This document shows, one piece after another, positions 4,583-5,200 of a stretch of DNA of 10,224 nucleotides. Source of the DNA: a virus (lineage: Duplodnaviria > Heunggongvirae > Uroviricota > Caudoviricetes); the IMG/VR virus record IMGVR_UViG_2526164649_000017. The stretch is one strand, 5' to 3'. The position numbers and the translations under genes were made by a program. How positions within the stretch are numbered: the first letter of the stretch is position 1; every line of letters begins with the position of its first letter. The notes below the pieces were generated by a model. The model did not search any database and was not told the DNA's origin. It was given only the letters and a program-made list of their open reading frames with translations.

Positions 4583-4605
4583 TTTGTCAGATGTGAGTAA
4601 ACTCC

Positions 4606-4941
4606 TTATGGACTTTGTTGTTTTAGTCCATAAGGACATATTTGCAGAGTGCAACGGTTATTAAAGCATTCATTCAATACGTTATCTGTATTTGTAGGGC
4701 ATTCCTGGCTGTTTTTGATTAAATTCCAGAATGTTTTATTGAATGGTACTACGTTGTAAATGGTTACAGGTAGCACTTTGTTATTGAGCATGATGCCTGT
4801 GTGAGTCAGTGTAAATATACTTTCAGGAGGTAAGAAAGCATCCGATTGATACCAGATTATTAATTTTATTTTACTCCATATGACTGAAAAAGATATTCCG
4901 CATGATGGCTGGATAACTGTATCAATCACAATCCACTTCAT
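4606..4941 (-). CDS. Hypothetical protein (111 aa) in AT-rich island
   Basis: Minus-strand ORF with AAGGAA SD-like sequence 6 nt before the ATG (4939-4941) and a TATACT -10-like hexamer about 40 nt upstream. Opposite orientation to the late operon; no family recognised. Confidence 0.4.
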
Positions 4942-5200
4942 TTAGTTTCCTTGTTTATGCCTTGCTGGTGATGTTCTGAAAAGTATAAATGATATTTTTG
5001 AATTAAACCATAGAGCAGAATTATTTTTCTGATGTTGTTTATTGTTTATTTAAATGCAGGGTGGTTTATATCTCGTCTTGTAGTTTATCCATGCATATCT
5101 GCTTGATAATCAGGTTTTTATTTAAGGTATGGTTTTGTGTTTTTTCTGTATTACATGTCAGGTATTTTAAAGAATTATTTTTCAGATGGTGGAAAGAACC

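Follow-up and report, generated by a model that had tools for sequence, protein, structure and literature searches.

The AT-Rich Island in the Late Region of a Shigella flexneri-Type Prophage Carries the RssB Anti-Adaptor Gene iraL

Introduction

The DNA considered here is the whole of the 10,224-nucleotide virus record IMGVR_UViG_2526164649_000017 (Caudoviricetes), referred to below as the window. Positions 4583–5185 of the window form a strongly AT-rich island that holds an open reading frame (ORF) on the minus strand, opposed to the phage genes on either side. What is this gene, how is it expressed and does it move between phages? An inspection of the letters alone (the sequence-only reading) had proposed an independently expressed and horizontally acquired moron, a term used here in the sense of Hendrix and Juhala.

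On sequence grounds, the gene in the island is iraL, which encodes an anti-adaptor of RssB. We put the probability at about 0.9 that the island is an iraL cassette with its own sigma-70 promoter and that IraL blocks RssB, with the result that RpoS accumulates in exponential growth. Gene identity, promoter anatomy and mobility of the cassette are established by the present analysis. IraL resets the level of RpoS, the general stress sigma factor, in growing cells, and it is enriched in uropathogenic Escherichia coli and Shigella. The gene has already been characterized and the locus itself holds nothing new. Four side observations amount to modest leads rather than findings: an allele with a deletion in the −35 element, an invariant tail with four cysteines, a cargo slot shared with other genes and an unannotated paralogue beside stx2.

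Identity of the Gene

The composition of the island is far from that of its surroundings, as had been perceived by eye. Its GC content is 0.322, compared with 0.501 in the remaining window. Among all 603-nucleotide sliding windows (n = 9622; mean GC 0.489, standard deviation 0.047) the minimum of 0.320 begins at 4572 and the interval 4583–5185 ranks 26th lowest, so that it is essentially the most AT-rich segment of this length. Codon usage deviates as strongly: the coding sequence (CDS) has a GC content of 0.345 and a GC content at third codon positions (GC3) of 0.339, while neighbouring genes have GC3 values of 0.47–0.56. The 244-nucleotide spacer upstream of the gene has a GC content of 0.283.

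The ORF (4606–4941, minus strand) starts with ATG and encodes 111 amino acids, including five cysteines at positions 14, 81, 92, 97 and 102. No other ORF longer than 67 amino acids touches 4583–5185, in agreement with its description as the only sizeable ORF of the island. The Shine–Dalgarno (SD) sequence that had been assigned to it is AAGGAAA (4952–4946, minus strand), 4 nucleotides ahead of the ATG with its GGA core 6 nucleotides from the ATG, and is conserved in CFT073, in E. coli 042 and in a paralogue of Stx2a phages described below. Since the Q antiterminator lies upstream on the plus strand and an ORF with a DUF1737 domain and the holin follow downstream on the same strand, the gene is antisense within the late transcription unit.

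Hryckowian et al. (2014, mBio) accepted a gene as iraL if it had at least 95% nucleotide identity to iraL of E. coli CFT073 across the whole coding region (PMC4045071). The window ORF agrees with the CFT073 gene (C_RS06710, WP_000871291.1) at 336 of 336 nucleotides and, accordingly, over the entire protein. The prophage at the potB island of CFT073 is syntenic with the window and 97–98% identical to it over positions 746–5865, with the shared order of Q, tRNAs, DUF3927, STnc100, iraL (antisense), nanS-p remnant and holin. A later paper gives iraL of CFT073 the locus tag c1429. The complete identity of the CDS, the synteny and this tag together identify the window gene as iraL. The −10, the transcription start site and the SD sequence are also shared with CFT073. 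The CFT073 prophage lies at potB, whereas that of the window occupies the Qin/ydfJ site in a chromosome of the Shigella flexneri type, is truncated by the insertion sequences (IS) IS600 and IS2 and has a predicted −35 element shorter by one base. A prophage of E. coli 042 is likewise syntenic, with 97–98% identity over the surrounding 5 kb.

At the family level, residues 1–110 align to profile positions 1–113 of 114 in NCBIfam NF007393 (IraM) with 162 bits, above the curated cut-off of 121. The PDB chain 8twd_A (IraM) is matched at E = 9e-32, and PHROGs also match the ORF. The homology search suggested for the 111-residue protein thus finds it conserved. Region 4300–5400 is present in thousands of complete E. 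coli genomes by megablast and the ORF is annotated there as 'anti-adapter protein IraM', a label of automatic pipelines that hides the functional distinction between IraM and IraL.

AT-rich DNA has few stop-free frames and many weak promoter-like matches, and a consensus scan missed the real promoter of this gene. On this basis the ORF might be taken for a chance frame in an AT-rich spacer of the H-NS type that has no coding function. This explanation is refuted by selection, homology and published experiments and deserves practically no credence. Among three paralogues, the ratio of nonsynonymous to synonymous divergence (dN/dS) is 0.08–0.16, the differences being mostly synonymous, which indicates strong purifying selection in this frame. 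The curated hidden Markov model and the PDB entry both identify homologues, and genetic and biochemical studies of the gene have been published.

Function of IraL and Its Contacts with RssB

The biochemical function was demonstrated by others on an identical CDS (PMC4045071). Deletion of iraL lowered log-phase RpoS in CFT073 and in Shigella sonnei, and halved the half-life of RpoS in CFT073. The cloned gene with 100 nucleotides of its own upstream DNA raised RpoS in K-12 (PMC4045071), which answers the phenotypic check that the sequence-only reading had proposed for the cloned ORF. IraL acts in log phase without stress and co-purifies with RssB; in two-hybrid experiments it interacts with RssB's N-terminal domain only, unlike IraM (PMC4045071). 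In CFT073, iraL mRNA is more abundant when fur is mutated, and it also rises as the temperature goes from 23 to 37 °C.

In the mechanism that we favour, iraL is a small self-contained gene that a lambdoid prophage carries among its late genes, with a sigma-70 promoter of its own from which transcription runs opposite to the late direction. IraL, a 111-residue paralogue of IraM, binds the N-terminal receiver domain of RssB. RssB held in this way cannot hand RpoS (sigma-S) over to the ClpXP protease, and RpoS builds up in exponential growth.

The crystal structure of IraM with RssB shows that IraM covers the receiver domain's α4-β5-α5 face, to which RpoS binds (PMC10844676). The contact residues of IraM fall into three clusters, which can be compared with IraL position by position. 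Cluster I contacts RssB's N-terminal domain through I4, I6, W22, K26 and I42 (PMC10844676), and all five are identical in IraL. Cluster II contacts the C-terminal domain through T13, C14, F18, W30 and L75, with the changes T13S and L75I in IraL. Cluster III (I61, Y62, H63 and I64) contacts the linker and the signalling helix, and IraL has H63N and I64V. The N-terminal β-barrel domain of IraM is conserved in IraL as well. Conservation of cluster I together with alterations in clusters II and III fits binding to the N-terminal domain only, and this pattern of contact residues may explain why IraL is restricted to that domain.

PmrD is the sole PDB resemblance of the IraM fold (PMC10844676), and the precomputed Pfam label of the window protein is PF11183 (PmrD). 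IraL could then be imagined as a PmrD-like connector whose target is some response regulator other than RssB. This is very unlikely. The identical protein has been shown to bind RssB and to stabilize RpoS (PMC4045071), and our own Pfam scan of the ORF returned no family, PmrD included, at E ≤ 0.01.

The solved structure of IraM spans residues 1–78 (8TWD); the C-terminal tail, described as less conserved and flexible, was cut off for crystallography (PMC10844676). In a 14-member alignment of the family that reaches down to 54% identity, C81, C92, C97 and C102 are invariant and C14 varies, and the four C-terminal cysteines are also conserved in K-12 IraM. The tail has the pattern CP...C...C...ICPxG and corresponds to IraL residues 81–111, encoded by 4606–4698 on the minus strand. 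Cysteine and zinc are unmentioned in the paper on the IraM structure (PMC10844676). From its conservation, the four-cysteine tail could possibly be a structural metal site or a redox switch.

Promoter and Regulation

The 5′ RACE (rapid amplification of cDNA ends) product for CFT073 iraL starts ACATCACCAGCAAGGCATAAACAAGGAAAC (PMC4045071), which is the reverse complement of window positions 4974–4945. By homology, transcription of the window gene starts at 4974 on the minus strand. The hexamer TATACT at 4982–4987 (minus strand), noticed as a −10-like element from the letters, ends 7 nucleotides upstream of the mapped start and is thereby a real −10. A minus-strand start had been expected near 4985; a start of its own is borne out by the CFT073 product, but its position at 4974 is 11 nucleotides away. 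A generic promoter scan gave minus-strand hits at 5048–5020 and 4890–4863, which do not fit the mapped start, and missed the real promoter. The assignment of the promoter rests therefore on the published RACE sequence. For the moron, the promoter and the −10, the sequence-only reading agrees with the published experiments almost to the base.

As defined by Hryckowian et al., iraL also has an upstream region at least 96% identical to that of CFT073, a sigma-70 −10 and −35, and the mapped start (PMC4045071). The first 100 nucleotides upstream in the window have only three differences from CFT073, and the start, the −10 and the SD sequence are kept. One of the three is a 1-bp deletion within the best match to a −35, which turns TTTACA of CFT073 into TTTA-A (5003–5007, minus strand); compared with E. 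coli 042, the window is shorter by the same base. The other two, relative to both strains, are substitutions at 4975 (position −1) and at 4944, between the SD sequence and the ATG. The −35 deletion recurs in all three loci compared, namely L005 and two of S. flexneri type, L008 and L009. For iraL2 of JJ1886 and for other strains, a −35 point mutation was reported and expression was left open (PMC4045071); that mutation may or may not be the deletion found here.

Several points weigh against an expressed and functional copy in the window. The promoter lacks one base of its predicted −35, and the exact 85-nucleotide promoter allele is found in only two of 1444 E. coli genomes. The published Shigella experiment concerns S. 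sonnei, not S. flexneri, and no canonical terminator follows iraL. That this S. flexneri-type copy, with a 1-bp deletion in its predicted −35, is expressed is an inference.

The most serious alternative is built on the same facts, namely that an intact iraL is here silent or much weakened by the −35 deletion and is a decaying passenger in a prophage eroded by IS elements. The deleted base belongs to the best −35 match and its loss shortens a spacer that is already short, the allele is nearly absent from E. coli, and the prophage is defective, its holin cut by IS600 and its structural genes gone. The authors of the iraL study raised the same doubt for JJ1886 iraL2 (PMC4045071). On the other side, the ORF, the SD sequence, the −10 and the start-site sequence are intact and the CDS matches the functional CFT073 gene without a single substitution. 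The allele is also unchanged in three independent genomes, and a good −10 in AT-rich DNA, or the help of an activator, can replace a −35. We consider silence improbable, though it deserves more weight than any other alternative.

A second feature of this region is a direct repeat resembling a PhoP box, TGTTTATTGTTTATTTA, at 5036–5052 (plus strand), which is −62 to −78 from the iraL start. It is the sole match with at most one mismatch in the window, where 0.14 would be expected, and a matching repeat is found at the homologous position of the Stx2a-phage paralogue (L004:5672–5688). The repeat is far upstream and in AT-rich DNA and can be considered a lead only. With one −35 base lost and the repeat kept, the S. 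flexneri-type promoter may have shifted from constitutive log-phase activity to dependence on an activator, or to silence. A broader and rather doubtful proposal combines this with the C-terminal tail: the −35-deleted promoter would now be activator-dependent or silent, and the four cysteines would form a metal or redox sensor that gates the anti-adaptor activity.

The repeat bears also on whether the gene is a true IraM, that is, an anti-adaptor that PhoP/PhoQ controls and Mg2+ starvation induces, and not the log-phase IraL. The annotation pipeline PGAP names the product 'anti-adapter protein IraM', the protein matches NF007393, and the PhoP-box-like repeat is conserved in the Stx2-phage paralogue. 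However, the protein is only 59% identical to IraM (YcgW) of K-12, the Mg2+-starvation anti-adaptor of the same family, compared with 100% to IraL, which has four more C-terminal residues than IraM. K-12 iraM, too, is AT-rich and has prophage DNA (e14) as its neighbour. Similarity to its locus is confined to 4622–4943, essentially the CDS, and the upstream DNA is unrelated, so that the promoter is not of the K-12 type and the promoter and regulation of K-12 iraM are unrelated to those of iraL. A scan of the K-12 iraM upstream region for a PhoP box gave only matches with two mismatches, at chance level. The repeat at −62 to −78 is in AT-rich DNA, where chance matches are easier, and IraL acts in log phase without stress and binds RssB differently (PMC4045071). 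An IraM-type role is quite unlikely, and the assignment to iraL is retained.

Mobility and Evolution of the Cassette

The iraL gene and its 5′ regulatory region form an exchangeable cassette at 4583–5200, which is absent from phages that share its flanks. In JLK-2012 and PPyecE_EH1910, the left flank matches the window as far as about 4536 with about 92% identity, PPyecE_EH1910 also sharing the hairpin that follows, and both rejoin the window at the ATG of nanS-p (5201) with 95–97% identity. Between these flanks they have 171 nucleotides of unrelated DNA or the anti-small-RNA AgvB (minus strand). The presence or absence of the segment with sharp borders among related phages confirms that the cassette is mobile.

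The right border is the DUF1737 ORF at 5201–5389 (plus strand; Pfam PF08410, E = 4e-17), an N-terminal remnant of nanS-p (yjhS) that is marked incomplete in RefSeq. The true start of this ORF is likely ATG 5201 rather than 5186. The nanS-p gene encodes a phage sialate O-acetylesterase, and the stub and the DNA from 5405 onward have lost the esterase body of about 1.5 kb found in JLK-2012.

The proposal of a horizontally acquired and independently expressed moron is supported by all four of the checks suggested alongside it. The composition is deviant (GC 0.32 against 0.50; GC3 0.34 against 0.47–0.56), and presence or absence is sharp in close phages that keep both flanks at 92–97% identity. 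The gene is conserved, and it has a promoter of its own and a phenotype in published work (PMC4045071). On the terminator side, there are only hairpins without a U-tract. Other lambdoid morons, located between Q and the lysis genes (stx, the AgvB small RNA) or elsewhere (bor and lom of lambda), also have their own expression signals and deviant composition. Like iraL, they are variably present between similar phages and serve the lysogen, not the phage. In contrast to stx, iraL lies antisense to the late transcripts and depends neither on Q nor on prophage induction.

Of 5426 complete E. coli genomes, 1428 carry the cassette, with one to three copies each, and it is also present in four sequenced phages. 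The family appears confined to Escherichia and Shigella; its 20 clusters are all named Escherichia. A Salmonella relative, RssC, has been cited (PMC4045071).

A third gene of the IraM/IraL family is encoded by the Stx2a phage Stx2_EH1910 (L004:5253–5576, minus strand) and is represented in 41 Stx2a/Stx2c phage records. In Stx2_EH1910, phage 2851 and phage 1717, it lies directly after stx2B and STnc100 and before nanS-p, again in antisense orientation. The product has 107 residues, with 73% amino acid identity to IraL and about 62% to IraM, and about 74% identity at the nucleotide level. Its promoter can be aligned with that of iraL, with TATAAT in place of TATACT. The gene is unannotated in most phage records, and no study of it came up in a literature search combining IraM and Stx2. 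With a nucleotide identity of about 74%, it would probably have been missed by the IraL paper's BLAST and PCR surveys. Strains of Shiga toxin-producing E. coli with high log-phase RpoS but without iraL have been described (PMC4045071).

The position used by this family is a common one. The slot right after the STnc100 terminator holds iraL, the iraM-like gene or the AgvB anti-small-RNA (L007:3185–3246), phage by phage. The cargo slot that carries Shiga toxin or the AgvB small RNA in related phages therefore also houses regulators of host physiology.

Late Transcription and Termination

The late operon is defined by a Q antiterminator of the quuQ/ydfT type at 2476–3297 (plus strand; Pfam PF03589, Antiterm, E = 9.5e-55). 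A candidate pR′ promoter, TTGATT-16-TAAATT, is read in the sequence at 3303–3330 (plus strand), and a terminator scan gave a candidate tR′ hairpin at 3378–3397 (plus strand); both are predicted from lambdoid architecture.

Immediately before the cassette, at 4391–4580 (plus strand), lies the gene for the small RNA STnc100 (Rfam RF02076, 132.4 bits against a gathering threshold of 47, full length over model positions 1–206), which is convergent with iraL. STnc100 is a prophage small RNA that occurs downstream of stx2 too. Its 3′ end is a stem at 4550–4571 with nine pairs, seven of them G-C, followed by the T-tract TTTATATT, and the terminator scan rates it as intrinsic. RefSeq records of E. coli 042 and CFT073 place, in the corresponding loci, a partial pseudogene for a 'hypothetical protein' inside STnc100 (4410–4535, minus strand), which is probably a spurious call.

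A plus-strand terminator just before the 3′ end of iraL had been recognized from the letters and credited with shielding the gene from late read-through. The terminator is confirmed by the scan and by its place in STnc100; the shielding is not. The Q-modified RNA polymerase of lambdoid phages ignores intrinsic terminators, and the STnc100 terminator is consequently no shield for iraL against late read-through. In the lysogen it can be expected to insulate iraL only from ordinary upstream transcription.

Downstream of iraL on the minus strand, the terminator scan and RNA folding found only hairpins, with no U-tract after either. One is a 12-bp hairpin across the iraL stop codon (4603–4636, minus strand); the other is the STnc100 hairpin, which is palindromic but has no U-tract on the minus strand, so that a bidirectional terminator for the two genes is doubtful. 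The minus strand of 4520–4650 folds with −51.2 kcal/mol (z = −6.0). By its predicted fold, the hairpin at 4603–4636 is a possible 3′ end or stabilizer of the iraL mRNA.

Prophage Context

The window is 99.97% identical over its full length to CP024470.1, the sequence of Shigella flexneri 3a strain 71-2783 (PMC5754485). Its left end, 1–2092, matches the K-12 Qin prophage at the relE-hokD-rem-ydfU end with 90% identity, and 7225–7731 holds part of ydfJ, where Qin inserts. Within 5857–8993 and 8978–10224, two inverted copies of IS600 flank the ydfJ fragment and IS2 comes after them. The class II holin (5696–5875, plus strand) is truncated by the first IS600 copy: homology to the CFT073 and 042 holin stops at 5865 and IS600 ORFs come next. 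This junction between holin and IS600 was seen in one genome of the species-level collection, and an exact protein look-up found it in CP024470.1 and an NCTC assembly. The Qin-like left end, the ydfJ fragment and the IS elements indicate an IS-eroded prophage of the S. flexneri type at the Qin site. As judged from this order of elements, it is the S. flexneri-type counterpart of Qin, whose lysis and structural genes were evidently removed by the two IS600 copies and IS2.

Two minor features lie between Q and STnc100. A tRNA gene at 3441–3516 (plus strand) has the anticodon CAT and is called tRNA-Met by ARAGORN and tRNA-Ile in the RefSeq records of homologous prophages. A tRNA-Ile call for a CAT anticodon would fit tRNAs of the ileX/ileZ type, whose C34 is converted to lysidine. 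Another AT-rich patch, milder than the island (GC 0.37–0.42), extends over about 3600–4200 and includes a 117-residue ORF at 3805–4158 (plus strand, GC 0.41), where the RefSeq records of E. coli 042 and CFT073 have no annotated gene. Residues 10–117 of its product hit PHROG 2873, a family of unknown function, at E = 2e-69, and the ORF is possibly a phage gene that annotation has missed and a further moron.
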